Source: Minisyncoccia bacterium
GTDB lineage: Bacteria > Patescibacteriota > Minisyncoccia > Phycocordibacterales > CALRBL01
Direction of reading: 5' to 3'
NCBI GenBank assembly: GCA_038230075.1
Contig: JBBRNV010000005.1
Location: forward strand, 14,071-78,070
Length of the DNA stretch: 64,000 nt
The first letter of the stretch is position 1, and every line of letters begins with the position of its first letter. The notes under the pieces are model-generated. The model was not told the origin of the DNA. It made no database searches and saw only the letters and a list, made by a program, of their open reading frames with translations. Position numbers and translations under genes: made by a program. This document shows positions 2,757 to 48,008 of this stretch, piece by piece.

Positions 2757-3281
2757 TTAAATGCTGTCAGCTAAAAACTGCTTTCCTAAAATGTGCGATT
2801 TCGATGAAGGATTGAAAAGTAGTTCACTTCCTTCTAATAGATAGACGTCTTTGATTCCTCCTTTAATCATAGCATTCCAACAAGATTCGCAACACCACCA
2901 ATGACCCCAATGATAAAGGTCGGCACCTTGGGTATCGAATCCATTCTTTTGTGCATCTACTACTCCTCGAGGCTCAGAGTGGTTGGCATAACTGGCACAC
3001 CCTGGGCAAAGCCAATATTTTGTTCCAGATGCGACCTTAAAGAACTTACGAACACACCATCCTTCTTGATGAAGCTTTCGAAGAGTGGGGTTCTTTAGGG
3101 GGGCTTGGCTGGCTCCTCGACCAATCACCTTACCGTCTTTAACCAACACAACACTTGTTGGTTGCATAGTCTCACTTGAGAGCTTTCCTACCTCTCTCGC
3201 TTCATGCATAAACGGGTTATCAAGCGTCACGTAGATGAACTTTCTTCCTTCTGGTAGATAGGGGTACTTAATTTGTGTCAT
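2757..3281 (-). CDS. dCMP/cytidine deaminase-family zinc enzyme (ComEB/Tad-like)
   Basis: HSE...CESC arrangement (H-x-E then C-x-x-C) characteristic of the CDA fold zinc site; 174 aa; location inside the dTMP-synthesis cluster. Confidence 0.7.
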   Translation of the reverse strand: MTQIKYPYLPEGRKFIYVTLDNPFMHEAREVGKLSSETMQPTSVVLVKDGKVIGRGASQAPLKNPTLRKLHQEGWCVRKFFKVASGTKYWLCPGCASYANHSEPRGVVDAQKNGFDTQGADLYHWGHWWCCESCWNAMIKGGIKDVYLLEGSELLFNPSSKSHILGKQFLADSI

Positions 3282-3317
3282 AGTAAGTAACTTGTTTGCA
3301 TGCTATCACGCGCATAC

Positions 3318-3332: not shown

Positions 3333-4169
3333 ATGAATACATTCGACCACATCTATCAGGAGATGCTCAAGAAGATTATGGCAGAAGGTATTCGCGAAAT
3401 GAGCGAAAGAACCGGCCTTGAAACTGCTGCAATTCCTGGGATGACATTTTCATATGATCCAATTAAAGATGGCTTCCCTCTTCTCACGCTTCGAAAAATT
3501 CCTGTGAAAGTTTTTATCGCAGAGCAAGCATGGTTTATTTTAGGATGCAGAAAGCCTGAAGATTTTTTACGAGACTACACAAAAATTTGGGATGTATTCA
3601 CTAATCCAAACGATGTAGTTACTGTTGCGTACGGATACCGATGGCGAAAACATTTCGGACGAGATCAGCTCGCTCTTTTAATTGAACTTCTAGAAAAAGA
3701 ACCGAGCTCTCGACATGGAGTTGTTGTTGCATGGGATCCAGCACAAGACGGTCTTTCACTTCAGAAAAAGAAAAATGTTCCTTGTCCCTATACCTTTACT
3801 GTAAATATTATTGGTGGAAAGTTACATATGCATAATGTGGTTCGATCAAATGATATGGTTTTAGGATTCCCTCACGATGTCGCAGGCTTTTGTCTTCTTC
3901 AATATATTTTGGCTCAACGACTACACGTTGGAGTTGGGATTTACACTCACACCATTTCAAATGCTCATATTTATAGTAATCACTACGAAGGGGCACAAGA
4001 AATGATTAAACGAGAAAATAGTCATAAACCAATCACTCTTACCCTTCCTGAAAAAACATTTGAACGAATTGAGGCTCGAGAGATTCCAGTCATTGAAGAA
4101 ATCATGGCACAAGTTGCAGGTCAATATCAGCCACAAGCAGCCATTCCTAATTTAAAAATAGCCATTTAA
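3333..4169 (+). CDS. thyA: Thymidylate synthase (ThyA) family pyrimidine C5-methylase, with Asn to Asp at the base-specificity position
   Basis: Collinear with ThyA: FPLLTLRK, YGYRWR, RHGVVVAWDP, catalytic PC(P) and HIYSNH. Likely start is the internal M (MNTFDHIYQEML), not the ORF-track start at 3300. Segment RSNDMVLGFPHDVAGF aligns to E. coli RSCDVFLGLPFNIASY (sequence recalled from memory). Confidence 0.85.
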   Translation: MNTFDHIYQEMLKKIMAEGIREMSERTGLETAAIPGMTFSYDPIKDGFPLLTLRKIPVKVFIAEQAWFILGCRKPEDFLRDYTKIWDVFTNPNDVVTVAYGYRWRKHFGRDQLALLIELLEKEPSSRHGVVVAWDPAQDGLSLQKKKNVPCPYTFTVNIIGGKLHMHNVVRSNDMVLGFPHDVAGFCLLQYILAQRLHVGVGIYTHTISNAHIYSNHYEGAQEMIKRENSHKPITLTLPEKTFERIEAREIPVIEEIMAQVAGQYQPQAAIPNLKIAI

Positions 4170-4173
4170 TATC

Positions 4174-4821
4174 ATGTCAATTCTTACCAAGAAAAATTTA
4201 CTTGAACGATTAGCAAGTGGAAATGTCACCTTTAAACCACAACTCGATACATTTCAAATTCAGTCGCACGCAATCGACCTTCGTCTTGGTTTTACATTTC
4301 TTATTCCAAAAATGTGGCAGATAACAAAACATGGTCGTGAGGCTTTGAATATTGATCATTTTGATAAAAATCGACCACCATATTTTGAAACTGTTGAGCT
4401 TGAACAAGGACAACATTTTGATCTTCTTCCGGGAGAATATGTACTTGTATCAACACTCGAATCAATGAAAGTTCCTAATGACTTAATGGCAATTCTTTTC
4501 CCCCGATCTTCAACCAATCGAAAAGGGTTATCTGTTGATCTTACAGGAATTGTTGATTCAGGATATGAAGGGCAACTGGCTATCCCCGTTCGAAACAACA
4601 CAGCGCATCAAACAGTGCGACTTTATCCAGGTGAAAGATTCTGCCAAGTTGTATTTGAAAAACTAGATGAAGAAATTGATGTTGAACACAGTCGCTACCA
4701 TCGAAAAGATATTATCGACGGTTTTGTACGAAATAAAAAAGCGACCCCAGATGATGAAAAAGAAATTGAGCTTTTGTTACAAGGTGATATCAAGGCGCTG
4801 AAAGAACAATTTAAAATCTAG
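4174..4821 (+). CDS. dcd: dCTP deaminase / dUTPase-fold enzyme (Dcd-like)
   Basis: PRSSTNRKGL...GIVDSGYEGQLAIPV matches the Dcd/dUTPase beta-jelly-roll signature; the start lies 4 nt after thyA. Confidence 0.75.
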   Translation: MSILTKKNLLERLASGNVTFKPQLDTFQIQSHAIDLRLGFTFLIPKMWQITKHGREALNIDHFDKNRPPYFETVELEQGQHFDLLPGEYVLVSTLESMKVPNDLMAILFPRSSTNRKGLSVDLTGIVDSGYEGQLAIPVRNNTAHQTVRLYPGERFCQVVFEKLDEEIDVEHSRYHRKDIIDGFVRNKKATPDDEKEIELLLQGDIKALKEQFKI

Positions 4822-4827
4822 TTTCAC

Positions 4828-5316
4828 ATGATCAATCTCATAGCAGCTATTCAAAAAAGTGATCGAGGTCTCGGATATAAAAACGAACTTTTATACAGAG
4901 TATCTGACGACTTAAAACGATTCAAAGAAATGACAACGGGTCACCCAATCATCATGGGACGAAAAACATTTGAATCAATCGGACGGGCACTTCCTAATCG
5001 TACGAACATCGTGATCACTTCACAAAAAATTGATGTTCCCGGAATTATCACTGTTCTATCTGATCAAGAAGCTTTTAATATTGCAAAGAAATCTGAAGGA
5101 TCTAATCAAATATTTATTATAGGAGGTGCACGAGTATATGAGGCATTCATGACAGTTGCCGATCAACTTTTTATAACAATTATTGAAGGAAATAAAACTG
5201 CTGATGTATTTTTTCCTACATTTGAACAAGACTTCAAAGAAATATCACGAGAAAAGCACGTAGACGCAAACACTTCGACTCCTTATTCATACGTTACCTT
5301 AGTTAAGAACTCTTAA
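4828..5316 (+). CDS. folA: Dihydrofolate reductase
   Basis: MINLIAAIQKSDRGLGYKNELLY...RFKEMTTGHPIIMGRKTFESIG; classic DHFR N-terminus and GRKT motif; 162 aa. Confidence 0.9.
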   Translation: MINLIAAIQKSDRGLGYKNELLYRVSDDLKRFKEMTTGHPIIMGRKTFESIGRALPNRTNIVITSQKIDVPGIITVLSDQEAFNIAKKSEGSNQIFIIGGARVYEAFMTVADQLFITIIEGNKTADVFFPTFEQDFKEISREKHVDANTSTPYSYVTLVKNS

Positions 5317-5409
5317 ATCAACAGGAAAGATGTGGTTGAAAAGGACACAAAATTGAGTTAGTCTTGCCGTAGGTTTCGAGCAATTCCGCTCGTATGTACC
5401 CCCATTTCA

Positions 5410-6231
5410 ATGAACGACTACTCTGCAGCAAGAATTCTCGCAGCAACCCAAGAACTTGATGCGGCAGCCCTCGCAGGACCAGCACCAATGACCCGTCAAA
5501 TTCCTCAAGAGCCAAAGATGACTATCTTCGCACAACAAAATGCGTGGACGCTCCTCGACCAAACGGGATCCCTCGTTCTGCATTGGAAAGGTCATCGCGA
5601 AAAAAATCCAAACGTCAGACAAGTCTCGGTCACTGACCACATGATCAGTTCTTCGTTTATTGTCACGCAAGTCATCTTGCAACTACGTACGCTTTTCCAA
5701 GCGAACAAAGTAACACATTACGTCGACTGGTTTCGTTTGATGATGGCTTGGCAAATTCACGACCTGGCCGAAATTATCTTGAAAGGCGACGTGGATTATG
5801 CCCGAAAGAATGTCGAGCGCGACGCGGTAGAGTTTACCGCCTTCGTACCTTGGCTTCGAAAGGCCTGTATTCATGAGACAGTGATCGAACAATTCGAAGA
5901 AGCTTTTCTGCTACAGTTCGCGCTCAAACAGGAACACTTCTCTTCGTTTAACGCTCGGGGACGACAAATCCTCAGTCGACTTAACGAAGAAAGTATCTTG
6001 GAGGCAACGATCTTTTCGGCAGCCGAGGCACTTGAATGCTTCTTCTACGCTCTCGAATGTTTGCGAATCCACCACGTGAAGGGTCCTCTTTACCAAGTAG
6101 CCAAGGATCAACAGCCGAGGCTCGAGGTTTTTTCGAAGACCATCCCCCACTTCGACACCGTGTGGACACCAAAACTTAATGATTGGGCCAAAGAAGTTGC
6201 TGCAATCGGTGTGGCACAACCCCAAACATGA
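5410..6231 (+). CDS. HD-domain phosphohydrolase, YfbR-like 5'-deoxynucleotidase candidate
   Basis: H...HD pair (VTDHMISS; WQIHDLAEIILKGDV, which resembles the YfbR LHDxxEVxTGD motif). The gene is visibly more GC-rich (~50%) than its neighbours. Confidence 0.5.
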   Translation: MNDYSAARILAATQELDAAALAGPAPMTRQIPQEPKMTIFAQQNAWTLLDQTGSLVLHWKGHREKNPNVRQVSVTDHMISSSFIVTQVILQLRTLFQANKVTHYVDWFRLMMAWQIHDLAEIILKGDVDYARKNVERDAVEFTAFVPWLRKACIHETVIEQFEEAFLLQFALKQEHFSSFNARGRQILSRLNEESILEATIFSAAEALECFFYALECLRIHHVKGPLYQVAKDQQPRLEVFSKTIPHFDTVWTPKLNDWAKEVAAIGVAQPQT

Positions 6232-6313
6232 CTGTTAGGATCCAAAAGAAACAAAGGCGTCGTCGCTCTCACCGAGCCTCGGCGTCCTTTCTTTTTTCAA
6301 CCACAAGCGTGAT

Positions 6314-7776: not shown

Positions 7777-10700
7777 CTAATTGGTAGGAACTGGAGTCTC
7801 AACAGGAGTAGTTTCCGGAGCTGGTTCTGTTGGCGCAGGTGGAGTTATTACAGGATCAGTTGGAAGTATCGAAGGAGTTGATGTTCCAGAATCTGTTGGA
7901 GTTACAGGATCTGAAGATGTTGCAGTAGATGTTCCTGTGCCTGTATCTCCACTTCCACCGCCACCATTACCTCCAGTTGGAGGAGTTGATGTTCCTGTTG
8001 TTAACCCATGACTTTCACAAGATCCTATTGTTGCAACAATAGCACCATCACTTACGGTCATACAGGTAAGATTTCCTGTTACTTTATCTCGCACGGTAAT
8101 TCCCTCTTCAACTGTTGCGTGTTTTGCAGTGAAGTTCTCAACTATCACATCTCGAAGTGCCCCCATTCCATTAACAACTGATGCCCCGAATGATTGAATA
8201 ATTCCAAAGACAGAGGTTGAGCCAGAACCAAGAGCTAGTGAACTTGTTCCTGACATATTATTTGAGAGCACAAATGAAAGATCGCTCGATGATGCCATGA
8301 ACTGATTCAACTTTTCATTGAGTGCTTGAATACCAACAAGAGCAACTCCGACAGGGTCAACTTGTGAAAGGTGTTTTGGATCATTATTTAAACCAAAGAA
8401 GTCATAAAACTGTTCAGCAATTGGGCCAATGTGTGTAGTACTTGCGTCTTGTGATTTATAATTCCATTTACTAATATCGAGTTCTGAAATTTTCAAGAGA
8501 ATATTTTGCTTATCTACAGGTGTGAAGTTTTCCTTAAGTGATCGTGAAGAACTAAAGTTTCCAAGACCTGTCGAGTCAACATATGCGAGCAATGTTCCAT
8601 CATCTGCTCTCCACTCAGAGAGATTGGCGCTTTGTCCTGTTGAACCGGTGATTGTTTGAGCAACAATATCATCTGAGATTTGAATATTGAGACGACTATC
8701 TGGTGTTGTAGTTCCGATTCCCAAATTTCCCGTCGCGCCGATTAAGCGCATTGATTCAGTATATGTACTTCCATCTCCTGTTGAGACATTTCCGAAACTG
8801 ATATATCCATTATCTGGTGAGAATTGTCTAAGTTCAAAAGGTTGGATTCCAAAACCATATCTACTATTTCCACCATCATCATACAAAAGAAGTTTTTGTG
8901 CATCGGTTCCAGATCCAAGTGAAAGGAGGGCTTGTGGTGTGCCAAAAATACCAAGACCTAAGTAACCATTCTCTGAAAGTATTGCCCCATTCCCAGTACC
9001 AGTTCCAGAATCTCGGCTAAAATAAAGATCTCCCGTTGTGCCGTTATTTCGAATACTCCATTGTCCAGCCTCTGCTCCACCTTGGTTGTTAACAGCAAGA
9101 CCAATATTTGAACCACTATCATTTCCAATAATTGACATGAAGTTCGTACCATTCAAATATGTTGTAATTTGACCTTCGACAAAAAGTCTATCTGAAGGTG
9201 TTGTTGTTCCAATTCCTACATTAACAGCATGTCCTCCTGTTCCTCCAAGAATCAGGGAGTTTGATTGCTGTACTTGAGCAAAATAACCGATTGCTGTTGC
9301 ATTAGACAACGAAGAAGAAGAAAAGATCGCACCATCTTGCTGACCAGCATATGAACCAATAAAGGTGTTTCCAACACTGTCTGTGACTGATCCTCCAGCA
9401 AGAACTCCAATTGAAACGTTTTCATTTCCTAAAATATTTGCTTCACCAGCTCTAAAACCTATCGCGCTGTTGTATGAACCTGAAGTGTTCTCGTGTCCAG
9501 ATCGCGAACCAACAAAGCTGTTTCCAAACCCATCAATATTTTGATTTCCCGCTTCAATACCAAAGAAGTTGTTTTCACTTCCTGTTGTGTTATTTATACC
9601 CGCTGCGAAACTAAAGAAGTTGTTATTTGACCCAGTTATGTTATGTGTTCCAGCTGCCGTTCCAAAAAAGTTGTTTCCCCCTCCTCCTGTGTTGTCATGA
9701 CCCGCCGCATTTCCAAAAAAGTTGTTATCGGTTCCTGTTGCATTATTTGCTCCTGCGGTGAACCCAAAGAAGTTGTTAAAATATCCAGAAGTATTACTTG
9801 TTCCTGCATTAAATCCAAAGAAGTTGTTTGAGTACCCGTCTATATTGCTTGATCCGGCACCTGGCCCGAAAAAGTTGTTTGATGAACCATCAACGTTACT
9901 TATACCAGCAGAGTCACCAAAGAAGTTGTTATTAGATCCGATTGTATTCGATCTTCCGGAATTCAAACCAAGAAAGTTATTGGATGAACCATTCAAGTTA
10001 TTTAATCCAGAGTTGAATCCGAAGAAGTTGTTATGCGATCCGTCGATATTATTCTGACCTGTTCCTGACCCCAAGAAGTTGTTTGACACACCATTGATAT
10101 TAGTAACACCAGCATTAAATCCGAAGAAGTTGTTATCTGTTCCATCCTGTGTATCTCGCCCCGCATTTTCACCTATGAAATTATTTGATCCTCCTGTTGT
10201 AATATTTAGTCCAGCTTGATAACCAACAAGAAAATTACTTGTTCCACTCATTGTTGTATTACCAGAATCTGCAAGTAATATACTACTTCCGACACGATCT
10301 AACGCTCGAAAATTTCGAATATAATAAGGCTGACTAGTGTTAACAATTCCATCGACTTCAAGTTTTTGACCGATGGTTGTTGTGCCGATTGAAACATTTC
10401 CTGCATTAAAATAAATATCACTTCCGCTGTTTACCCACTGTGATGATGAAGTTCCACCAGCAAATAACACGCCGTTTTGGTAGAGGTTTCCAGTGAAGTT
10501 GATGTCGCCTTGAACTGCGAGTGTGTGACTTGGTGTTGTTGTGCCGATTCCAAATTTTCCTCCACCAATAGGCGCTCCACTCTGTGTATCACTATTGTAG
10601 ATACCGGTAGCATATAAAACATTTCCAATGTTCAACTCTTGTTCTGCGTTATTTATAACTCCTCGTCCCAACGAAATTGAATTTGAAAAACCTCCTGTTC

Positions 10701-13700
10701 CTGCCCACTGACCAATCGCAATTGATGTTCCGTCTGATGAGTTATTAACCGTGTCGGCTGATCCTGCGTTTAATCCAATAAATATAGAGTTGTTTGCTTG
10801 CGCTGAAGAATCTCCAGCAGTATCTCCTAGAAAAAGCGAGTAAGAAGCACTTGTGGCATTATGTCCTGCGCCAATTCCAAGAAACGTAGATCGAAATACG
10901 TTCGTTGCACCCTCTCCTGTACCAAAACCAATAAAGTTAGAGAGTCCTGCGTCAGTTGCGCCCATTCCTGCTCCTGCGCCAATAAATATTGAACTACTAG
11001 CACGTGTTGCCAATTCTCCCGCAGCGCCTCCGATGAAAATCGAATTCACAGCGTCAGAAGCATGAAATCCGGAACTAGCTCCAATAAAAATAGCTTGGCT
11101 TGCATTTGTTGCTTCGTTTCCAGAACCATCCCCAAGAAAAAGCGAATAGTTTGCGTTGGCGACGTTTGTTCCAGCAGAGGCTCCGATTGCAAGACTATTT
11201 CCATTGATAGAATGGATTGGAAGCCCACTCAGATTAAGAGTGCTTGTCGCGTCTATCGTTCCAAGTGTCACATCTCCTTTGAAAAAGGCATTACCATTGT
11301 CTACTGTTAATTTGTAACCTGGAGTCGTCGTTCCAACTCCCACATTCCCTAAATTATAATAAATATCAGAACCTGTAGTTGTCCACTGTGATGTTCCTGT
11401 TCCTGAAGTGAAGAGGTTTCCATTTTGATAGAGGTTTCCAGTGAAGTTGATGTCGCCACCAACTGCTAGTGTGTATCCAGGGGTTGAAGTAGCAATACCA
11501 ATTCTTCCACCTGTTTCAGGTGCACCACTTGGGGTAATGTCTGCTCGAATGTTATTGGCAAACAGTACTCCTCCCAAGTTTAGTTCTCGAGATTGATTAT
11601 TGGCAGTTCCTTCTCCAATTGCAATACTGTCACTGAATCCTCCAGTTGATGTCCATGCTCCAATTAATATAGAAGATGACGCGAGATTTGTTGTGTTATC
11701 TACCGTGTCGGAGTATCCAGCATTACTACCAAGAAAGATTGAATTCGCAGCGTTGGTTGCTGCGGTTCCGACATTTGCTCCTACGAAAAACGAATCGTGT
11801 GCGTTTGTCGCATCGAGTCCGGCAGAGTATCCAAAGAAATGAGAATTTCTTGCCTGATTTGCATTTCTTCCTGCCTCCTGTCCAAAAAAGTTTGAGCCGT
11901 ATGCAGTGGTTGCATCACGCCCCGCATTGATTCCGAAGAAATTGGAATCATTTGCGTTGAAAGCTCCTCTTCCTGCGTTTGATCCAAAGAAATTGGAATT
12001 ATTTGCGTCATTTGCGTCACGCCCAGCAGACAAACCAAGAAAGTTTGATTCATTAAGATTTGCATCATTTAATCCTGCAAATGAGCCAATAAGTATATTA
12101 TTACTTCCATCTGTTAATGACGTTCCCCCACCCGCAGCAAGAAAGTTATTAGTACCTGTAATTGAAGTGTTTCCCGATACTCCAAGAAACAAATTTCTAG
12201 TCGTGGATGAAAATGCTAACGCTTGAAGATTTTCTATTTTTAATATTCCACCATTTGAAATATTGATGTCACCAACAACACTAAGTTTTGATGCGGGGGT
12301 TGTTGTTCCAACTCCCACATTCCCTAAATTATAATAAATATCAGAACCTGTAGTTGTCCACTGTGATGTTCCTGTTCCTGAAGTGAAGAGGTTTCCATTT
12401 TGATAGAGGTTTCCAGTGAAGTTGATGTTACCTTGAACTGCGAGTGTGTGACTTGGTGTTGTTGTGCCGATTCCGAGGTTTCCATTTGAAAGCATTTGGA
12501 TATATGCAGTATTTGAAAGACCGAGTTTAAAAATATTATCCTGAACAGTTGTTAAGCCATCACCTATCAGATATGAGTTTGTTGCTGTTGCAGCGTTAGC
12601 TTTTCCTAAAGCAAAGCTTCCGTTCGGAACATTGTTGTTGTATCCAAAGGCATATGTAGTAGAACCTGTTACCATATTCAGGAAACCAAAAGCTCCAGAA
12701 TAAGATCCGTTATTTATGGTGTTACTTCCACCAAAAATCGCAGACTCTGTACTAGTACTTATTCCATTTTCACTACCATATACACTTGCGTGATCAAATG
12801 AGTTTATAACCTTGTTTCCTATTCCAAAAGCAACACCTCGAATACCAGAAACTGTATTTGAAGTTCCGTAGGCAAGATTCTCACCTGGAGTAATAGCATC
12901 AACAGGAAAGATTCCATTTGAAATTGTATTTGAAGCTCCGTAGGCTTGGTTATTTCTTCCTTCAATTGTGTTGAATTTACCAAAAGCAACAACACCCCCT
13001 CCGGCTCCTGACGTTACATTCGATCGACCAATTATTATCGCGACACCTGAGTCTACAATGTTTGATGATCCAAAAATATTTGCACCTGATCCGGATCCTG
13101 AATTATCATTTCCCACAACTGATCCACCACTTGAATTCACAACAGAGATATCTCCTGCAACTGTAAGTGCCAAATTTGGAGTTGTTGTTCCTATTCCAAC
13201 ATTTCCTAAATTGTAATAAATATTTGAACCATTATTTAACCACTGAGATGATGTCGTTACTCCTCCAAATAAAATTCCGTTTTGGTAGAGGTTTCCAGTG
13301 AAGTTAATGTCGCCATCTACTCCTAATTTATAACTAGAAGTTGTTGTTCCAACCCCAAGGTTTCCTGTACTACTCGCAAGAGAAAGATAAGAACCGCTCG
13401 ATAAACCAATTAAGAAGGAGTCATTAACATTGTTAATGAGATTGTTTCCGAGAGTGTAAGAACCTGTACTGTTCACCGAGTTTGCAAGCCCAGCAACAAA
13501 ACTATTTGTTCCTGTTGCTCTGTTATTGCTTCCAAAAACTGAGACTTCGGAACCCGTAATAACGTTTGAGAAACCAAACGCATTTGATTCAAATGTTGTT
13601 CCTGACAAAATATTAAACACGCCGAAAGCTGAAGATGTATTTGATGTTCCAGAAATTCCGTTTTGAATTCCAACTGCAACCGAACGATCATCAGCAACAA

Positions 13701-14607
13701 CACTGTTTCCATACCCAAGCGCAGTTGCTCCTCCTGAACTGTTACTTTGAACAGCATTACTTCGTCCAATTGCCGTAGACCTTCCACCGAGTGATGAGTT
13801 ATTGAAACCAACAGCAACAGGTTTAAATCCTGATCCTTGATCGTCAGCGGTGTTGGTAAATCCAAGAGCAACACCATTAATTGCACTGACTCCTGACCCA
13901 ACCGCCACTCCTGATGAACTGTTAATAACATTAATATTTCCAACAATGTTTAGTCGTTCAACTACTGATGTTGTTCCAAACCCCACATTTCCATTAAGAA
14001 AATTAAGATTACTTCCAATATTTAATATCCCACCCGACCCATCGAGGTCTCCAATATGAACCGACCAATCTCCTGTGTTTAAATCAGTTCCTGTTTGATC
14101 AAAAAAACGAGCACCTGAAAAATCTCGAAGAATCAATGTTGAGGTTGATACACTATAAGGAGTTACGTCCAATGCGGCATGTGGAGAAGCAGTTCCTATA
14201 CCAAGTCGTGTAGTTACCGAATCAAATACAAAGTTAGCATTCGCACCGAACACTCCCCCATTGTTAAATTGAATCTGAGTATTTGATCCAGCAGGAGAAG
14301 TAGAACCACTTGAGCTTGCGGTACCGAGGGTTACCCAATTCGAGTTTGTAATTCCTCCTTGTAACTGATAATTAGTTGTATTTGCAACAACATACACACT
14401 CAGGCCTTGAAATCGTTGACCTGATGGAATGGCATCTCGTGCAGTGAGGTCTTGAACTACTGTTCGTGCATCGAGCGGCAATTGAGAATTTAACTGAAAG
14501 TTCGATCCAAGTTGAATACTTGCGAGCGCGTAACTTGCAACGAATACAATGGCAACAATAATACCAGTGAGAGATGATTTAAATATTTTTTTAAAAAATC
14601 TTTTCAT
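7777..14607 (-). CDS. Giant (2276 aa) secreted/cell-surface protein with tail-fibre-like repeat modules and an endosialidase-type C-terminal intramolecular chaperone (peptidase S74-like) domain
   Basis: N-terminal signal/TM (MKRFFKKIFKSSLTGIIVAIVFVASYALAS). Many LGIGTTTP...GDINFTGNLYQNG modules and (S/G)NNFFG repeats. A block ~175 aa from the C-terminus (SRSLKENFTPVDKQNILLKISELDISKWNYKSQDASTTHIGPIAEQFYDFFG...GVALVGIQALNEKLNQ) matches the phage tail-spike autoproteolytic chaperone domain. Thr/Pro/Gly-rich tail follows. Confidence 0.85.
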   Translation of the reverse strand: MKRFFKKIFKSSLTGIIVAIVFVASYALASIQLGSNFQLNSQLPLDARTVVQDLTARDAIPSGQRFQGLSVYVVANTTNYQLQGGITNSNWVTLGTASSSGSTSPAGSNTQIQFNNGGVFGANANFVFDSVTTRLGIGTASPHAALDVTPYSVSTSTLILRDFSGARFFDQTGTDLNTGDWSVHIGDLDGSGGILNIGSNLNFLNGNVGFGTTSVVERLNIVGNINVINSSSGVAVGSGVSAINGVALGFTNTADDQGSGFKPVAVGFNNSSLGGRSTAIGRSNAVQSNSSGGATALGYGNSVVADDRSVAVGIQNGISGTSNTSSAFGVFNILSGTTFESNAFGFSNVITGSEVSVFGSNNRATGTNSFVAGLANSVNSTGSYTLGNNLINNVNDSFLIGLSSGSYLSLASSTGNLGVGTTTSSYKLGVDGDINFTGNLYQNGILFGGVTTSSQWLNNGSNIYYNLGNVGIGTTTPNLALTVAGDISVVNSSGGSVVGNDNSGSGSGANIFGSSNIVDSGVAIIIGRSNVTSGAGGGVVAFGKFNTIEGRNNQAYGASNTISNGIFPVDAITPGENLAYGTSNTVSGIRGVAFGIGNKVINSFDHASVYGSENGISTSTESAIFGGSNTINNGSYSGAFGFLNMVTGSTTYAFGYNNNVPNGSFALGKANAATATNSYLIGDGLTTVQDNIFKLGLSNTAYIQMLSNGNLGIGTTTPSHTLAVQGNINFTGNLYQNGNLFTSGTGTSQWTTTGSDIYYNLGNVGVGTTTPASKLSVVGDINISNGGILKIENLQALAFSSTTRNLFLGVSGNTSITGTNNFLAAGGGTSLTDGSNNILIGSFAGLNDANLNESNFLGLSAGRDANDANNSNFFGSNAGRGAFNANDSNFFGINAGRDATTAYGSNFFGQEAGRNANQARNSHFFGYSAGLDATNAHDSFFVGANVGTAATNAANSIFLGSNAGYSDTVDNTTNLASSSILIGAWTSTGGFSDSIAIGEGTANNQSRELNLGGVLFANNIRADITPSGAPETGGRIGIATSTPGYTLAVGGDINFTGNLYQNGNLFTSGTGTSQWTTTGSDIYYNLGNVGVGTTTPGYKLTVDNGNAFFKGDVTLGTIDATSTLNLSGLPIHSINGNSLAIGASAGTNVANANYSLFLGDGSGNEATNASQAIFIGASSGFHASDAVNSIFIGGAAGELATRASSSIFIGAGAGMGATDAGLSNFIGFGTGEGATNVFRSTFLGIGAGHNATSASYSLFLGDTAGDSSAQANNSIFIGLNAGSADTVNNSSDGTSIAIGQWAGTGGFSNSISLGRGVINNAEQELNIGNVLYATGIYNSDTQSGAPIGGGKFGIGTTTPSHTLAVQGDINFTGNLYQNGVLFAGGTSSSQWVNSGSDIYFNAGNVSIGTTTIGQKLEVDGIVNTSQPYYIRNFRALDRVGSSILLADSGNTTMSGTSNFLVGYQAGLNITTGGSNNFIGENAGRDTQDGTDNNFFGFNAGVTNINGVSNNFLGSGTGQNNIDGSHNNFFGFNSGLNNLNGSSNNFLGLNSGRSNTIGSNNNFFGDSAGISNVDGSSNNFFGPGAGSSNIDGYSNNFFGFNAGTSNTSGYFNNFFGFTAGANNATGTDNNFFGNAAGHDNTGGGGNNFFGTAAGTHNITGSNNNFFSFAAGINNTTGSENNFFGIEAGNQNIDGFGNSFVGSRSGHENTSGSYNSAIGFRAGEANILGNENVSIGVLAGGSVTDSVGNTFIGSYAGQQDGAIFSSSSLSNATAIGYFAQVQQSNSLILGGTGGHAVNVGIGTTTPSDRLFVEGQITTYLNGTNFMSIIGNDSGSNIGLAVNNQGGAEAGQWSIRNNGTTGDLYFSRDSGTGTGNGAILSENGYLGLGIFGTPQALLSLGSGTDAQKLLLYDDGGNSRYGFGIQPFELRQFSPDNGYISFGNVSTGDGSTYTESMRLIGATGNLGIGTTTPDSRLNIQISDDIVAQTITGSTGQSANLSEWRADDGTLLAYVDSTGLGNFSSSRSLKENFTPVDKQNILLKISELDISKWNYKSQDASTTHIGPIAEQFYDFFGLNNDPKHLSQVDPVGVALVGIQALNEKLNQFMASSSDLSFVLSNNMSGTSSLALGSGSTSVFGIIQSFGASVVNGMGALRDVIVENFTAKHATVEEGITVRDKVTGNLTCMTVSDGAIVATIGSCESHGLTTGTSTPPTGGNGGGGSGDTGTGTSTATSSDPVTPTDSGTSTPSILPTDPVITPPAPTEPAPETTPVETPVPTN

Positions 14608-17369: not shown

Positions 17370-18209
17370 CTAAAAAGTTGCCTTATATGCATCGAGTACA
17401 TTTTGGAAAAGAGACACAATTGTTAACTGTCCAACACCTCCAGGAACTGGAGAAATAGCCTTAACTAAGGGTTCTATTGCCACAAAATCGACATCTCCGT
17501 ACAAACCTTCTTCTTCTCTGTTGATTCCAATATCAAATATTACCTGTTGTTCATTTACAAAGTCTTTTGTAATAAAATGTTTTTTTCCAATAGCAACCAT
17601 GAGCATATCTGCAGACTGACAGAGACGAGGTAAATTTTCAGTGTGCGAGTGAGCGATGGTTACTGTTGCATTTTGATTGAGTAGTGCAAGCGCGAGTGGT
17701 TTTCCAACAATTAATGATCTTCCAATAACGACAATATGTTTTCCTTTAAAAGGAAGTTGATATTCCTGTGCCATTGTAATAATTCCCCTCACTGTCGCAG
17801 GAAGAAAACCTTTCTGACCAGAGTACAACTTTTTTACATTCGAAGCAGTTAATCCGTCTACATCTTTTTCTGCAACAATTGCATCAATGACAGAATGTTC
17901 ATCAACATGTTCAGGAAGCGGAAGTTGTACTAAAATTCCATGAACAGACTCATCAACATTATACTGTCTTACAAGTGCAACAACCTCTTCTGTTGTTACA
18001 TCTTCTCTCATCAAATTGTGTACAACACTCATTCCAATAGTTTCTGCAAATTGCTTTTTGTGCTGAATATACGTTGTTGAAGCTTGGTTGTTTCCAACTT
18101 GAATAATAGCCACCGCTGGAGTCTTTTTTCCAACAACAACAGCTTCGGTTACCTGTTGTATAAGGATAGATCGATATTTTTCTTTAACAGTTCGTCCATT
18201 TAAAATCAT
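17370..18209 (-). CDS. folD: Bifunctional methylenetetrahydrofolate dehydrogenase/cyclohydrolase
   Basis: AIIQVGNNQASTTYIQHKKQ, HGILVQLPLP, DVDGLTASNVKKL, VVIGRSLIVGKPLALALL - canonical FolD motifs. Confidence 0.95.
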   Translation of the reverse strand: MILNGRTVKEKYRSILIQQVTEAVVVGKKTPAVAIIQVGNNQASTTYIQHKKQFAETIGMSVVHNLMREDVTTEEVVALVRQYNVDESVHGILVQLPLPEHVDEHSVIDAIVAEKDVDGLTASNVKKLYSGQKGFLPATVRGIITMAQEYQLPFKGKHIVVIGRSLIVGKPLALALLNQNATVTIAHSHTENLPRLCQSADMLMVAIGKKHFITKDFVNEQQVIFDIGINREEEGLYGDVDFVAIEPLVKAISPVPGGVGQLTIVSLFQNVLDAYKATF

Positions 18210-38643: not shown

Positions 38644-38733
38644 GGAGGAGTGGCAGAGTGGTCTATCGCACTTGTCTTGAAAACAAGAGTCCCTTCACGG
38701 GGACCGTGAGTTCGAATCTCACCTCCTCCGCCA
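38644..38733 (+). tRNA. tRNA-Ser (anticodon UGA), CCA encoded; insertion target of the adjacent element
   Basis: GGAGGAG...anticodon loop CTTGAAA...long variable arm GTCCC-TTCA-CGGGGAC...GTGAGTTCGAATCTCAC-CTCCTCC-GCCA. Confidence 0.85.
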
Positions 38734-40230
38734 AGAATCACATTTAGAAAAATCAAGGTTGGAAGCCTCGGCGCAAAGCGCCTCGGCATGGTATTTTTCC
38801 GCAATTTTGAAGGCATTTTTGAAATCGCACGCCAGCGTGCGGTCGGCAATGCGGAAGTTCGAACCAATCTTTTTGAGAAAATCCCGTCCCGCGACGGGAT
38901 TTTCTTGTTGAGCGTATTTTTCGGCTTGGTTGGCCTCTTTTAGAAAGGCAATGGCAAGTTCGAACCGATTATTGCTCTTTCGCTCAAAAGACTGGATTTT
39001 CTCCTGAAAATCTTTTTTAGCGAGAATGAGCTTGTGCTTTTTAGTGGCATATTCCGTTTGCAATAAATTGCCTTCAAGTTGTAAATCGAGCAAACGATCA
39101 AGTTTTGTCTCAACCTGCACAAGCTCATCTCTCGTCTTTTGAGCAAAAGAGCTTTCCGCTTGGGCAATATCTATTTTTTCTTTTTCAAAATATGCGATTG
39201 AAACATTGACCCAAGCGGAAGACAAAGAAACTTTTTTGATTTCCTCTTTTATTTGAGAAGTGATGGCGTCCTCTCTCGCGTATCTTTGCGAGCAAGGATT
39301 TTTCCGTTTGGTACAGCGGAGATAGTTGTGTCCCTTTTGTGTTTCAGTGGTAATGAAGCAACCACATTCTCCGCAACGGAAAAATCCTCTATACACATAA
39401 GGTTTCAACTTTGGCGATTTCGGTTTGCTCTTATTCGCCATCACTTCTTGAACGGAATCAAAAAGTTTCTTTGTGATAATCGGTTCATGCTTTCCGTCAT
39501 ACAATTCGCCGTTATATTCAATCATTCCAAAATAGATTTTATTTTTCAGCATGTACTGATAATTTGAGACGGAAAGCATTTTACCTTTCTTGCCAACCAA
39601 GCCCAAGGAATTGATAATCTTTCGGATTTGAGCGAGGGGGTATTCGCCAGTAGCGTACATTTCAAAAGCCCGCTTGATATACTTTGCCTTTTCTTTATCA
39701 ACAGCGATACAGCGGGCATTCTTGTCGTTCACATAGCCAAGCGGCGCCCAAGCGGGCCATATTCCATTTCTCAATTTCTGGCGAATACCCCTCTTTATAT
39801 TTTCCGAAAGATTATCCACATAGTATTTTGATTGCCCAAAAGCAATGGACAACATAAATTTCCCTTGCGGTGTGCAGTCAAACCAAAAAGTGGGAAATTT
39901 TAGCGTGGTAATTTTGCCAGTATCTACGAGATAGATAATCCGTCCGCCGTCTATAGAATTGCGAGCAAGGCGGTCGGGGTGCCACGCTAAAATTCCTTCC
40001 GCTTCGTTTTTCTCTATGCCCGCCACCATATCATTAAAAATTTCTCGCCCCGGCTCTTTGGCGGTTTTGCTTTCCACAAATTCACGGACGATCTGCAAAT
40101 TTTCTTTTCGCGCGTATTCTTTTAGCTCGAAAATTTGCGCTTCAATACTCAAAACCTGCCTTTCGGGTTCGTCCGTGGATTTGCGGGCATAGAGGAAAAA
40201 CTTTTTGGTTTGTAAATTTATGTTGTCCAT
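38719..40230 (-). CDS. Large serine recombinase (resolvase catalytic domain + recombinase domain + zinc ribbon + coiled coil)
   Basis: YARKSTDEPERQVLSIEAQ (catalytic Ser motif), recombinase-domain motifs, CGECGC...C zinc ribbon; 503 aa; ~44% GC versus ~37% for the host. Confidence 0.9.
   Translation of the reverse strand: MDNINLQTKKFFLYARKSTDEPERQVLSIEAQIFELKEYARKENLQIVREFVESKTAKEPGREIFNDMVAGIEKNEAEGILAWHPDRLARNSIDGGRIIYLVDTGKITTLKFPTFWFDCTPQGKFMLSIAFGQSKYYVDNLSENIKRGIRQKLRNGIWPAWAPLGYVNDKNARCIAVDKEKAKYIKRAFEMYATGEYPLAQIRKIINSLGLVGKKGKMLSVSNYQYMLKNKIYFGMIEYNGELYDGKHEPIITKKLFDSVQEVMANKSKPKSPKLKPYVYRGFFRCGECGCFITTETQKGHNYLRCTKRKNPCSQRYAREDAITSQIKEEIKKVSLSSAWVNVSIAYFEKEKIDIAQAESSFAQKTRDELVQVETKLDRLLDLQLEGNLLQTEYATKKHKLILAKKDFQEKIQSFERKSNNRFELAIAFLKEANQAEKYAQQENPVAGRDFLKKIGSNFRIADRTLACDFKNAFKIAEKYHAEALCAEASNLDFSKCDSWRRR
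38728..38861. repeat. Inverted repeat X, copy 1 (~134 bp; includes the last 6 nt of tRNA-Ser and the last ~45 codons of the recombinase)
   Basis: ccgccaagaatcacatttagaaaaatcaaggttggaagcctcggcgcaaagcgcctcggc...gcggaagttcg is the reverse complement of 40345-40478, with 1 mismatch. Weaker similarity continues ~60 bp further. Confidence 0.85.
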
Positions 40231-41303: not shown

Positions 41304-43934
41304 ATGTTAACACAAAAATACGACGAACTTTTTAATCCGCTATTAGAAGCACTCAATAATCTTGGGGGCTCTTCTTCGATTAAGAAAATAGAAGAGGAGG
41401 TTGCAAATATTCTTAATTTAACAGCAGAGGATAGATATGATAAGCATCGTGGAAATAGAACAAAGCTAGAATATAGATTAGCATGGGCTAGTAATTACTT
41501 AAAAAGATATGGCTTAATTGATAAATCAAAAAGAGGAATATGGTCTCTAACTGAAGACGGAAAGAGAACCAACATTGTTGACAAAGACGAAGTTAATCAA
41601 TTTGTTAAAACATTAGATTTAAAAAAATCTAATGTTCGTTTAACAAAAAAAATAGTTGAGAAAATCAATATAGTTGAATTTCTTCAAAAAATTGATTTGG
41701 AGGCTTTTAAATATGAACCTCATTTTTTAACTAACCCCGGAGTAAGAGTTAAGGATATTCTATCCAGCGTTGAAAAGAGATGGGTATTGCCGAATTTCCA
41801 AAGATATTATGATTGGGACAAGGAGGACGTAAGGGCTTTTTTGGAATCCATTTTTAAGGACTATTTTGTAGGATCGCTGCTTTTGTGGGAAGTAGAGAAA
41901 GAACCAGAGATTGCTTATTTTCCGATACAAGGTGTTAAAAACAAAATTGATAAGCCAGAAATAATTATTCTTGATGGCCAACAAAGGATTACTTCGTTGT
42001 ATTATGCGATTAAAAATCCAACTCTAGAAGAGGATGGTGTTAAATCGTTGTTTTATATAAATTTCAAAAATTATTTTGAAAATTTATCTTCCGACATTGT
42101 TATTACAAGTAGTAGAAAATTAAGCATTAGAGAGTCGGTAGAGTCCTTACTTTTCCCATTTTACGAACTGGAAAATCATGTCGAATGGATGCGAGAATTT
42201 GTTGATTTTTATGAAGAGCAGGATGGAATTGACAAAAGAAAGTTAAAAGAGCTTAGCAGAATAATGGAGGACAGGGTTCGTCATATGTGGGGAAGTTTTC
42301 AAATTCCCGAAATTAAACTTCCGGCCTCAATGAAACTTCATCATGTTGTTGATATATTTGAAAACATAAACACAAGAGGGAAACTTCTTGACGCTTTTGA
42401 TCTTTTAATTGCAGCCTCCATAAAACAGAATATTGATTTAAGAAAATTATGGGATGGTTCACGTCAGAAGTACCCAAACCTTGCTAGATATGCCGAAAAA
42501 ACAAAAAACAAGATTAGGATGTATATTTTGCAATCAATTTCGCTACTCCATAATCCAACTAGTTCATGCAAAAAAAGTGACATATTAGAATTATACGAGC
42601 AAATATACTCAAATAAGGGAAAGGACCCAAAAACTTTTGAAAAGCATTGGGAAGAAATGTCTGATTATGTAAATTTGGCCATAAAGGAGATGGAGGATCT
42701 CAAAGGTGGTTTTGGAATAATTGATGAATCACATGTTCCATTCATGTCGATAATTCCGATACTGGCTGCATTAAAAAGAGAGGTTGATTCGAGAGATAAT
42801 AAGCATAGTTGTAATGAAAAAATCAAACAATGGTATTGGTCAGTGGTATTTAGTGAAGCATATTCATCTGCGGTTGATAGCCAGCTAACATTAGACTTTA
42901 AGGAATTAAAGGAGTGGTTCTCCGATGATACAAAAATTCCAAAAAGCGTGGAAGAGGCAAGAATTCTCATTAAAACTTTGAATTTAAAAAAGGTTAATAC
43001 TTTTTCAAGTGCTGTTTTTCGTGGAGTACTCTCTTTACTAGCCATAAAAGGATCTAAAGATTTGCAAACAGGTGAAATGGTTAATAATAGAAATGACTAT
43101 CATAAAGACCATATATTTCCGAAAAGCAAATCAGAAAAATATGTTACTACAAAAAAGGAGCTAGATTCAATATTAAATATGGCTTGGTTGACAAGTCCCA
43201 CTAACGAAAGCAAGGGCGCAAAAGAACCAAAGAAATACTTTGAAGAGTTTGAGAGTAAATACAACGGAAATAAAGGAGCGTACACAGAAGTTCTTGAATC
43301 ACACTTCATCAACAAAGAGGACTACGACTATCTTCTAGATAATAATTTCGAAGAATTTATAGTCGAAAGAGAAAGTGTTTTAGTGGACGAGATTAAAAGA
43401 TTAATTGGTTGGAATAAACATGATCAAGACAGTGATATCCAAAATAACGATATCGACCAATTAATAAATTCTTACGAAAATGAAAAACTTGAGTTTAAGT
43501 CAACATTTAAAAAAAACATACTAACACAAAAATCTGATGAAATTATTAGATTTTCAGTGCTTAAAACAATAGCTGGTTTTTTGAATGCACGAGGAGGAAC
43601 TTTAATAATTGGTTATGACGAAAAAGGCAAGAAGGTAATTGGATTGGAACAAGATTACGAATTAATGAAGAGGGGTGATCGAGATAGTTTTGAGTTAGAG
43701 TTTTGGAATTACATTGAAGCGAATATTGATAAGGATGTAGTGAAAAATAATATAAATTTGAGATTTGAATTAATTGATGAGAAAGAGCTGGCAGTAATTG
43801 AAATCAAAAGAAGTTCAAAGCCAATTTATATTAAAAAAGCTGACAAAAAAATTCTTTATACTCGTAACAGAAATGAGACTGAGAATTTAGAAGATCCTGA
43901 AGAAATTCATAATTATATAGAAAAACATTTCTAA
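41304..43934 (+). CDS. Four-domain nuclease: Mrr_N winged helix + DUF262 (ParB/GmrS-like NTPase) + DUF1524 (GmrD-like His-Me/HNH nuclease) + C-terminal AlbA_2/Schlafen-like domain; GmrSD/BrxU-like type IV restriction candidate
   Basis: N-terminus YRLAWASNYLKRYGLIDKSKRGIWSLTEDG (Mrr_N). NFQRYYDW...IILDGQQRITSLYYAI (DUF262 DGQQR motif). YHKDHIFPKSK...NMAWLTSPTNESKG (DUF1524 DHIxP motif). C-terminus EKLEFKSTFKKN...SVLKTIAGFLNARGGTLIIGYDEKGKKVIGLEQD (AlbA_2). 876 aa; ~32% GC, AGA/ATA-rich codon usage. Confidence 0.8.
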   Translation: MLTQKYDELFNPLLEALNNLGGSSSIKKIEEEVANILNLTAEDRYDKHRGNRTKLEYRLAWASNYLKRYGLIDKSKRGIWSLTEDGKRTNIVDKDEVNQFVKTLDLKKSNVRLTKKIVEKINIVEFLQKIDLEAFKYEPHFLTNPGVRVKDILSSVEKRWVLPNFQRYYDWDKEDVRAFLESIFKDYFVGSLLLWEVEKEPEIAYFPIQGVKNKIDKPEIIILDGQQRITSLYYAIKNPTLEEDGVKSLFYINFKNYFENLSSDIVITSSRKLSIRESVESLLFPFYELENHVEWMREFVDFYEEQDGIDKRKLKELSRIMEDRVRHMWGSFQIPEIKLPASMKLHHVVDIFENINTRGKLLDAFDLLIAASIKQNIDLRKLWDGSRQKYPNLARYAEKTKNKIRMYILQSISLLHNPTSSCKKSDILELYEQIYSNKGKDPKTFEKHWEEMSDYVNLAIKEMEDLKGGFGIIDESHVPFMSIIPILAALKREVDSRDNKHSCNEKIKQWYWSVVFSEAYSSAVDSQLTLDFKELKEWFSDDTKIPKSVEEARILIKTLNLKKVNTFSSAVFRGVLSLLAIKGSKDLQTGEMVNNRNDYHKDHIFPKSKSEKYVTTKKELDSILNMAWLTSPTNESKGAKEPKKYFEEFESKYNGNKGAYTEVLESHFINKEDYDYLLDNNFEEFIVERESVLVDEIKRLIGWNKHDQDSDIQNNDIDQLINSYENEKLEFKSTFKKNILTQKSDEIIRFSVLKTIAGFLNARGGTLIIGYDEKGKKVIGLEQDYELMKRGDRDSFELEFWNYIEANIDKDVVKNNINLRFELIDEKELAVIEIKRSSKPIYIKKADKKILYTRNRNETENLEDPEEIHNYIEKHF

Positions 43935-44239: not shown

Positions 44240-45085
44240 TCAAGCATTAATCCCCTTCAATACCTCACGAATCATTTTATTATGATCAACTTTCTTTCCT
44301 CCAGCTTTTACATATTCAAACATTTCTCTCATGAAGCCTGTCATATTTTTATTGATAATTTCAATAGCAACATCTTCATGCCAATTAATAATTAATGTGG
44401 TGTCTTTGAAAATCCATATTTCTGAATCGTAGTTAAAACGATCATTGGGAAACACGGTATAGTCTGCCATTCTTCCCTCAAGGGTCTTTGTTGACTCCTT
44501 ATACCTCTGAGGATCAGACGTTATTTCTTTTTCATACGAATCATACGCACCCTCATTCAAAATACCATCAACAACCAAGTGATTATCGATAATTGATTTA
44601 TTGAAACTTCTGAATTGTTCGGGGGTTAGTTTGTGAATTTGATCGAGATACGATCGGTGATGCTGAATCGCCTTAATGCGCTCGTTTTTATTCAACGAAG
44701 CGATGCGTGCAAATGTTGGAATAATCTCTTTGGGTCCAACGTGAATAATAAACTCATTTTCTTTGGCAGTTTTAATACGCGCACCCTTTTTTGTTTCTGT
44801 GGCAATAGTTACTTCATCAATAATATTCTGCAATTCTAGAACAAATTGTTGCTGTGTAAGTGCAATGTATCTATATCGTTTACCAAATTTCACCTGATTC
44901 ACCAACTTCCTTTCTAAAAGCTCTTTCAAGGTGAAAGCGACACTTGTTCGAGGAATCCCCGTCTCTTTTGCGACATGACTAAGACTTTTGGCAGTACTCA
45001 TTGATCGCAACAACTCAATTGAAACATCAGACAAGCCAAGCATTTTTAGTATTTTTTTATCCCACATCATATGGATAGTATACAT
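44240..45085 (-). CDS. TrmB/MarR-like winged-helix transcriptional regulator with C-terminal ligand-binding-like domain
   Basis: N-terminal HTH (LSHVAKETGIPRTSVAFTLKELLERKLV); 281 aa. Uncertain family. Confidence 0.45.
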   Translation of the reverse strand: MYTIHMMWDKKILKMLGLSDVSIELLRSMSTAKSLSHVAKETGIPRTSVAFTLKELLERKLVNQVKFGKRYRYIALTQQQFVLELQNIIDEVTIATETKKGARIKTAKENEFIIHVGPKEIIPTFARIASLNKNERIKAIQHHRSYLDQIHKLTPEQFRSFNKSIIDNHLVVDGILNEGAYDSYEKEITSDPQRYKESTKTLEGRMADYTVFPNDRFNYDSEIWIFKDTTLIINWHEDVAIEIINKNMTGFMREMFEYVKAGGKKVDHNKMIREVLKGINA

Positions 45086-47662: not shown

Positions 47663-47759
47663 ACAGGAACCATAGCAAGCGCTGTAAATTAATCTAGTAA
47701 AGTGAACTTCAGTAGTACATTTCAAATAACCCTTGTTTGTAAGGGTTATTTGGCAGAAG

Positions 47760-48008
47760 TTAACACCTGATAGCCCTTTCAGGACACCAAAGGTTAATAG
47801 CTGCACCGTTTCCAATCAAACGACGAATAAAAGGCCGATCAAAAAGCACGAACTGATGACCGCCACATCTCCACACAACCTGATCTCCTTTAAAACACAA
47901 AACTAAAGTTCTTGATTCAGTTGTGAATTGCGACGTTGTGAGAGAAACAATTCTCGTTTCTTCGTTTGTTTCAGAAAAAAATACTTCGTTAATAGGATCA
48001 AACTTCAT
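47760..48008 (-). CDS. Hypothetical 82-aa protein
   Basis: ORF only. Confidence 0.3.
   Translation of the reverse strand: MKFDPINEVFFSETNEETRIVSLTTSQFTTESRTLVLCFKGDQVVWRCGGHQFVLFDRPFIRRLIGNGAAINLWCPERAIRC

Follow-up and report, generated by a model that had tools for sequence, protein, structure and literature searches.

A thymidylate synthase homolog with aspartate at the specificity position points to a probable permuted thymidylate pathway in Patescibacteria

Thymidylate synthesis is treated as a universal pathway, with ThyA or ThyX adding the methyl group to deoxyuridylate (dUMP). Analysis of a 64-kb stretch of DNA from a Minisyncoccia bacterium (contig JBBRNV010000005.1; the whole stretch is called the window below, and positions are counted from its first nucleotide) suggested that the open reading frame (ORF) at 3333–4169 on the forward strand, a member of the thymidylate synthase (TS) family, on balance probably encodes a deoxycytidylate (dCMP) C5-methyltransferase rather than a dUMP-dependent ThyA, and that it forms a permuted thymidylate pathway together with its neighbours. 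In the proposed scheme, a Dcd-like protein would hydrolyze deoxycytidine triphosphate (dCTP) to dCMP and pyrophosphate, and the TS homolog would convert dCMP and 5,10-methylenetetrahydrofolate (CH2-THF) into 5-methyl-dCMP and dihydrofolate (DHF), with its Asp182 reading the N3/N4 edge of cytosine. A divergently transcribed deaminase would then turn the 5-methyl-deoxycytidine (5-methyl-dC) nucleotide into the thymine nucleotide with release of ammonia, and Tmk would phosphorylate thymidylate (dTMP) to dTDP. The folate cycle would be closed by dihydrofolate reductase (DHFR), which would reduce DHF to tetrahydrofolate (THF), and by serine hydroxymethyltransferase (SHMT), which would regenerate CH2-THF from THF and serine. 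The net conversion of a deoxycytidine (dC) nucleotide into a deoxythymidine (dT) nucleotide would be that of the classical route, with methylation preceding deamination and dUMP not being needed. We infer from sequence the substrates and products of this scheme, the phosphorylation level at which deamination would take place and its standing as the sole route to thymidylate.

The TS gene starts with the ATG at 3333, and its product is 278 amino acids (aa) long. An in-frame ATG lies upstream at 3300 and is not used by the homologs, nearly all of which are 277–281 aa long and open with M-x-x-F-D. Residues 7–253 of the protein matched the Pfam family PF00303 (Thymidylat_synt) with an E value of 6.8e-53. 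An earlier note on this DNA, made from the sequence alone, had read an aspartate in place of the asparagine that contacts the substrate base and had proposed a profile alignment with residue mapping as a check. The mapping was performed by three methods, namely phmmer against solved ThyA proteins, MAFFT with Escherichia coli ThyA, T4 gp42, two phage enzymes and 150 family representatives, and an hhalign comparison between the profiles of the family and of canonical ThyA proteins (probability 100; E value, 7.6e-65; 250 columns). All three aligned the segment RSNDMVLGFPHDVAGF to RSCDVFLGLPFNIASY of E. coli ThyA and VPCPY to APCHA, placing Asp182 at the position of Asn177 and Pro152 at that of His147. 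Both the change from Asn to Asp and the change of the PCH motif to PCP were therefore confirmed, and the specificity position holds Asp, not Asn. The third change that had been noticed, from Phe176 to His181, is present but is not conserved within the family, where the position holds H, T, A, S, F or Y; His181 is specific to the present sequence and carries no weight.

Two further substitutions relative to E. coli ThyA, Trp83 to Phe and Arg127 to His, were found in the MAFFT alignment, while Cys146, Glu58, Trp80, Tyr94, Arg126, Arg166, Ser167, Asp169, His207 and Tyr209 are retained. In the canonical ThyA profile, Asn177, His147, Trp83 and Arg127 are all invariant. The C-terminus of the protein aligns with that of E. 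coli ThyA to the last residue, whereas T4 gp42 ends short (hhalign and family alignment). A predicted structure of the protein had a mean confidence (pLDDT) of 79.7, and its top 50 Foldseek matches were all TS proteins with template modeling (TM) scores of approximately 0.7; these 50 listed matches comprised only canonical TS structures and no natural dCMP methylase. The search gave no mapping at the level of residues and so did not extend the result of the alignments.

The aspartate is a fixed feature of the family. Asp182 was present in all 120 database homologs and in 81 of 81 Patescibacteria species, in which it is encoded by GAT (49 species) or GAC (32 species). Because the residue is invariant although both codons are in use and Asn is only one transition away, Asp182 is held by purifying selection, and the change is not a one-off or chance event. 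Pro152 is encoded by all four proline codons. The catalytic Cys, Glu, Asp and His were found in 81/81 species and Tyr209 in 80/81, and the two positions that govern ribose preference, Ser172 and Arg127 in the numbering of the protein itself (Ser167 and Arg126 in E. coli), were likewise kept in all 81. When each GTDB species was represented by one genome, the scan recovered relatives in 287 species, all of them Patescibacteria. An identical TS protein is encoded on a 90-kb NCBI contig, and the close homologs are all named Parcubacteria, Paceibacterota or Patescibacteria. The GC content is flat at approximately 0.40 around the thymidylate cluster. The TS gene is chromosomal and vertically inherited, as part of a core operon pair and not of an island.

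To place the family, a filter-free HMMER search was run over 1.84 billion representative proteins, which yielded 13,483 TS-family clusters, and the best 150 were aligned. Among these 150, all full-length representatives scoring at or above approximately 145 bits carry Asp177, and all except P0148, which has His, carry a residue other than His at position 147, Pro being the commonest; most of them also have Phe83 and Gln or His at position 127. The canonical combination of His147, Asn177, Trp83 and Arg127 was first seen at 144 bits. When 50,697 phage genomes were searched, the best matches were from the Rhodobacter phage RcSimone-Hastad, Xp12, PaMx74, PaMx28, Mallos and others. The RcSimone- and Xp12-like enzymes reached 160–190 bits with 35–39% identity, compared to approximately 120–130 bits for T4-like td. 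Directly compared, the protein scored 170–190 bits against the Xp12 and RcSimone enzymes, 120 bits against E. coli ThyA and 45 bits against T4 gp42. The nearest kin outside the Patescibacteria clade are thus the Xp12-type phage enzymes, with canonical ThyA proteins farther away. The Xp12 enzyme is the classic deoxycytidylate C5-methyltransferase (EC 2.1.1.54). The motifs AYGYRWR(K/R)HFGRDQL and AWDPAxDGL....KNVPCP are common to the protein and the Xp12-type enzymes, and they contain a small insertion that is absent from E. coli ThyA.

The mapped residues are the ones that matter for base specificity in characterized enzymes. A metagenome-wide association study identified positions 177 and 147 as the best two for telling cytosine-modifying TS homologs apart from canonical ones, and N177D/N229D mutants of TS become dCMP methylases (PMC8670742). 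Synthesis of 5-methyl-dC (5mdC) in vivo has been demonstrated for the Xp12 enzyme and for five of seven other Asp177 enzymes (bioRxiv 10.1101/2024.12.05.627091). The deaminase encoded beside such phage enzymes has been proposed to convert a 5-methyl-dC nucleotide into a thymidine nucleotide (10.1101/2024.12.05.627091). The gene module of Xp12 consists of a HAD hydrolase, TS, dCMP deaminase and DHFR, and that of RcSimone-Hastad of MazG, TS, deaminase and DHFR.

Fusion proteins join the same activities. P0142 (433 aa) combines a dCMP-deaminase domain with an Asp177 TS, and P0182 (424 aa) combines a MazG/PRA-PH pyrophosphohydrolase with an Asp177 TS; these fusions tie the hydrolase, TS and deaminase activities to one pathway. 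At the P0142 locus (L092, 6001–7973), the adjoining Dcd-like gene has the same Pro at the position of the catalytic Glu as the window protein described below, and a ribonucleotide reductase is encoded nearby. As a separate observation, P0149 carries an HNH domain ahead of its TS domain. Three viral contigs (L089, L090 and L091) were also found to hold TS genes of the Asp177/PCP type seen in the candidate phyla radiation (CPR), with 49–56% identity. On L089 (IMG/VR UViG_3300025858_000007; 4616–6250), the TS gene comes after a gene for a CPR-type deaminase (37% identity) and before genes for a HAD-domain protein and a YqaJ recombinase. These contigs look like phages of CPR bacteria that have the module in common with their hosts.

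The neighbouring genes listed in the earlier note were all present as described according to family profile matches. On the reverse strand lie tmk, a dTMP kinase gene (703–1395; PF02223, E value 4e-14; NF005923, E value 5e-34), glyA, encoding SHMT (1408–2676; PF00464, E value 4e-151), and the gene of a zinc deaminase with the dCMP-deaminase fold, which diverges from the TS gene (2757–3281; PF00383, 32.9 bits). Downstream of TS on the forward strand lie a gene of the Dcd/dUTPase fold lacking the catalytic Glu (4174–4821; PF22769 DCD, E value 4.5e-33) and folA, encoding DHFR (4828–5316; PF00186, E value 3.6e-47), and rplK and nusG follow just downstream of the cluster. For the 287 relatives, 80 loci were retrieved. 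The TS gene has the divergent deaminase gene as its immediate upstream neighbour in 78 of the 80 and the Dcd-like gene as its downstream neighbour in 78 of the 80, most exceptions being contig ends. SHMT was found in 66/80 loci, DHFR in 64–67/80, Tmk in 40–42/80 and rplK in 50/80, and the same gene order was observed on two large contigs of relatives.

The Dcd-like protein is named a dCTP deaminase in databases, and its score against TIGR02274 (112.5 bits) exceeds the cutoff of 92.8. Like dCTP deaminases and the bifunctional DCD-DUT enzymes, it has the Dcd-type fold, the N-terminal region and the Ser and Asp motifs. Unlike them, it has Pro138 (AIPVRN) where solved dCTP deaminases have the catalytic Glu (TLELSN), which corresponds to Glu138 of E. 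coli and Glu129 of Mycobacterium tuberculosis, and it ends in a conserved C-terminal extension, SRYHxKDIIxGF. Pro occupies the Glu position in 120 of 120 homologs, while the nucleotide-binding Ser112 and the motif-III Asp128 are kept. Because the catalytic Glu is replaced throughout, the protein is not a dCTP deaminase and is incapable of deamination by the known mechanism, so that a literal reading of the gene as dcd did not hold. Its simplest role would be that of a dCTP (or 5-methyl-dCTP) diphosphatase supplying dCMP. A genuine dUTPase of 145 aa is encoded in or near the cluster, beside the Glu-less Dcd-like gene, in 9 of the 80 loci (for example, L003 9014–9451 and L005 3286–3723), and no dUTPase was found in the window. 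The presence of this separate enzyme in some relatives indicates that the Dcd-like protein is not simply the dUTPase of the cell, and, together with its descent from Dcd, it argues for dCTP as the substrate. The dCTPase T4 gp56 was considered as a homolog and rejected, as alignment revealed no relationship; the resemblance would be one of functional analogy only.

In the deaminase, H101-S-E103 and C131-x-x-C134 are invariant, as is a second cluster formed by H71, C76, C92 and C95. The best fold matches of its AlphaFold2 model (pLDDT 85.6) in the PDB were the dCMP deaminases of T4, S-TIM5, Streptococcus mutans, PBCV-1 and human, and a phmmer search of PDB sequences returned nothing below an E value of 0.2. 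BLASTP matches to the Xp12 and RcSimone deaminases were marginal (E values of 0.019 and 0.056). The protein is a predicted 5-methyl-dC nucleotide deaminase, and its preference for this substrate over dC is purely conjectural. Regarding the gene model, the public call (P0271, 150 aa) leaves out the first 24 codons of the ORF; the homologs are 167–176 aa long and share an N-terminal YPYxPxG, and the 174-aa form is probably the right one.

The earlier note had left the choice between a divergent true ThyA and a dCMP C5-methylase open. In the former case, the TS homolog would act on dUMP, the deaminase would be a dCMP deaminase and the Dcd-like protein a dCTP/dUTP diphosphatase, giving the classical route of the Gram-positive and eukaryotic type within one operon. 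Several points argue for such an arrangement and weigh against a dCMP methyltransferase. The classical route accounts for each of the six genes, and gene content alone accommodates the order dCTP to dCMP to dUMP to dTMP equally well. The TS protein scored 131 bits against the ThyA equivalog TIGR03284, above its cutoff of 108, and it is for this reason that the protein is publicly named thymidylate synthase, as its homologs uniformly are. Apart from positions 147 and 177, its catalytic residues match those of canonical ThyA. The dUTPase inside the cluster of some relatives would yield dUMP, for which there would be no use if TS did not accept it as well, and this counts mildly in the same direction. 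In addition, orthology between the CPR and phage deaminases could not be upheld on marginal BLASTP matches, their likeness being detectable in the fold only, and two of the seven other Asp177 phage enzymes produced no detectable 5mdC (10.1101/2024.12.05.627091).

Against a dUMP-specific ThyA stand the specificity residues themselves. The canonical profile has Asn at position 177 without exception, and this residue is known to switch specificity between uracil and cytosine (PMC8670742); the Asp found here is invariant under purifying selection. The sequence neighbours of the protein down to approximately 145 bits are all of the Asp type, including the characterized dCMP methylase of Xp12, and the clade-specific substitutions His147Pro, Trp83Phe and Arg127His/Gln travel with the Asp. 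The methylate-first order is decided only by these specificity residues and the homology to Xp12. With Asp177, the non-His147 residue and the kinship with Xp12 taken together, the methylase is much better supported than a true ThyA, and we regard the latter as unlikely. No second thyA or thyX was found within the 64-kb window. In a table of Parcubacteria genes from 2015, 13 of 17 genomes have a single COG0207 thyA gene each, and thyX is not among the entries. Papers on the CPR treat the gene as an ordinary thyA, and our literature search, which left most subscription-journal papers outside its reach, found nothing on a cytosine-type TS variant in CPR/Patescibacteria.

Asp177 is also common to T4 gp42 and MilA, which raises the alternative of a dCMP (or cytidylate, CMP) hydroxymethylase making 5-hydroxymethyl-(d)CMP. 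This alternative was judged very improbable. The protein scored only 45 bits against T4 gp42 compared to 170 against the Xp12 enzyme, and T4 gp42 has Thr147, Val83 and Asn176. Hydroxymethylases regenerate THF and need no DHFR, and the T4 dCMP hydroxymethylase is without the ThyA C-terminal tail of approximately 27 residues (PMC5175136). The DHFR gene, by contrast, belongs to the cluster in at least 64 of the 80 loci, and the TS protein keeps the tail that it shares with ThyA and that folds over the bound folate. The adjoining DHFR, the retained tail and the closer relationship to the Xp12 enzyme than to gp42 favour a methyl over a hydroxymethyl product, and the suggestion that folA implies a reductive methyl transfer producing DHF was supported by the first two. 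In CMP hydroxymethylases of the MilA/BcmA type, Ser167 is replaced by Ala and Arg126 by Lys (PMC5175136). Since Ser and Arg are kept at these positions, specificity for a deoxyribonucleotide rather than a ribonucleotide is predicted.

If dCMP is methylated, the product could in principle reach DNA. The earlier note had held that a dCMP methylase would imply modified cytosine in DNA. This does not follow, since the conserved adjoining deaminase and a kinase of the dTMP type with its characteristic Arg point to 5-methyl-dCMP (5mdCMP) as an intermediate of dTMP synthesis, as in Xp12. The best solved match of Tmk was the M. tuberculosis enzyme (MtTMPK), whose Arg74 hydrogen-bonds thymine O4 and disfavours cytosine; all 43 of 43 sequences have Arg at the position aligned to it. 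A different outcome would be that 5mdCMP is phosphorylated and incorporated, so that pre-replicative 5-methylcytosine (5mC) partly or fully replaces cytosine in the chromosome and only some of the product is diverted by the deaminase to thymidine nucleotides. In favour of this outcome, the DNA of Xp12-like phages, which have the same TS(Asp)-deaminase-DHFR module, is fully substituted with 5mC. A motif scan found no C5 DNA methyltransferase motif in the window, a result that is uninformative on genomic 5mC. Moreover, mSCD-B5, the one phage deaminase that has been characterized, acts only on triphosphates (10.1101/2024.12.05.627091). By analogy, deamination at the triphosphate level would mean that a pool of 5mdCTP exists, possibly along with 5mC in the DNA.

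On the other side, the cluster encodes no kinase predicted to take 5mdCMP, and its Tmk retains the thymine-binding Arg. The Dcd-like diphosphatase could keep the pools of 5mdCTP or dCTP small. E. coli incorporated 5mdC only when provided with the promiscuous T4 gp1 kinase (10.1101/2024.12.05.627091). The GC content of the loci ranges from 29 to 59% and gives no signal that can be related to 5mC; as a test of genomic 5mC it was dropped, since Xp12 is GC-rich despite full substitution. We consider this outcome improbable. To our knowledge, replacement of cytosine by pre-replicative 5mC has been described to date only in phages, Xp12 being one of them. It is equally doubtful that Paceibacteria/Parcubacteria live without a dUMP-dependent TS while their 5-methyl-dC nucleotides feed the deoxynucleoside triphosphate pool and give chromosomal 5mC as in Xp12.

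The dCMP methyltransferase reading can be compared with known systems. With the Xp12 enzyme, the protein shares Asp177, Pro147 (PCP), Phe83 and the two motifs, and with the Xp12 system a module of nucleotide hydrolase, TS, cytidine deaminase (CDA)-fold deaminase and DHFR, built partly from different proteins, as well as the proposed formation of a T nucleotide by deamination of a 5mC nucleotide. Unlike Xp12, the genes described here are cellular, chromosomal and syntenic with rplK-nusG across 287 species of Patescibacteria, and Tmk and SHMT belong to the cluster. Arg127 is replaced by His or Gln, and the C-terminus reads LKIAI where the phage enzyme has NPKPEVIE. The window deaminase comes from a different, very divergent family, and dCTP hydrolysis is apparently carried out by a Glu-less Dcd-fold protein and not by MazG or HAD as in RcSimone and Xp12. 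Evidence for 5mC-substituted DNA comes from the phage only. Canonical ThyA proteins (E. coli, L. casei and human; EC 2.1.1.45) resemble the protein in fold, catalytic residues, C-terminal tail and association with folA and glyA, but they differ at Asn177Asp, His147Pro, Trp83Phe and Arg127His, with approximately 30% identity. T4 gp42 (EC 2.1.2.8) and MilA share the Asp of cytosine specificity at 177 and the same catalytic Cys and Glu; they are otherwise of very low similarity, with different residues at 147, 83 and 176, and have neither the tail nor a need for DHFR.

Other features of the window were recorded as well. Between folA and rplK, positions 5410–6231 (+) hold an ORF of 273 aa; in L003 and L005, rplK directly follows the cluster. 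This ORF had no significant family match, only sub-threshold resemblance to YfbR-like HD 5′-deoxynucleotidases (E value 0.05) and dNK (E value 0.04), and with its H..HDLAE motif it could be an extra nucleotide-metabolism gene. FolD, a methylene-THF dehydrogenase/cyclohydrolase, is encoded at 17370–18209 (−), 12 kb from the cluster, and also lies near the cluster of L005; with SHMT and DHFR it gives this otherwise reduced genome a small set of enzymes for folate one-carbon metabolism. A 287-aa protein encoded at 46952–47815 (−) has a NUDIX domain at its C-terminus, its N-terminal half being unassigned. Directly after nusG, positions 7777–14607 (−) encode a highly repetitive protein of 2,276 aa that is rich in Gly, Ser, Asn and Thr and has an N-terminal membrane or signal segment; it is presumably surface- or adhesin-like.

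A GmrSD-like nuclease in the same window had been offered as a further link to modified DNA. The protein in question (41304–43934, +; 876 aa) combines Mrr_N, GmrSD_N (DUF262) and Schlafen/AlbA_2 domains and matches the PADLOC candidate HEC-05, and no DUF1524 nuclease domain was detected in it. It is flanked by a large serine recombinase gene (38719–40230, −) and a gene for a TrmB/CARF-like regulator (44240–45085). The segment 38719–45085, which also holds two small ORFs, is a probable mobile defence island, within which the GC content falls to 0.32, the minimum of the window, and the GC skew flips at 42–44 kb. As the gene sits next to a recombinase in a low-GC island 37 kb from the thymidylate cluster, is not conserved with that cluster and lacks a detectable DUF1524, the link was abandoned.

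The chemistry and the gene module are already known from Xp12-like phages. What appears to be new is their fixation as the apparent housekeeping thymidylate operon of a large cellular lineage, which has a deaminase family of its own and a Dcd-fold protein without the Glu, and whose annotations resemble the textbook pathway. If this reading is true, a large bacterial lineage would methylate dCMP and deaminate it afterwards, with a module that had until now been observed in phages with 5mC DNA alone. Reconstructions of CPR pathways would then need correcting, as the names thymidylate synthase and dCTP deaminase would hide the difference. The family would also provide approximately 1,000 or more sequences of candidate 5mC-selective deaminases, which are in demand for methylation sequencing (10.1101/2024.12.05.627091). 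Furthermore, it would give the phage modules of dCMP methylase and 5mC deaminase a cellular context, possibly as their evolutionary source or sink, and would raise the testable question of pre-replicative 5mC in cellular DNA.

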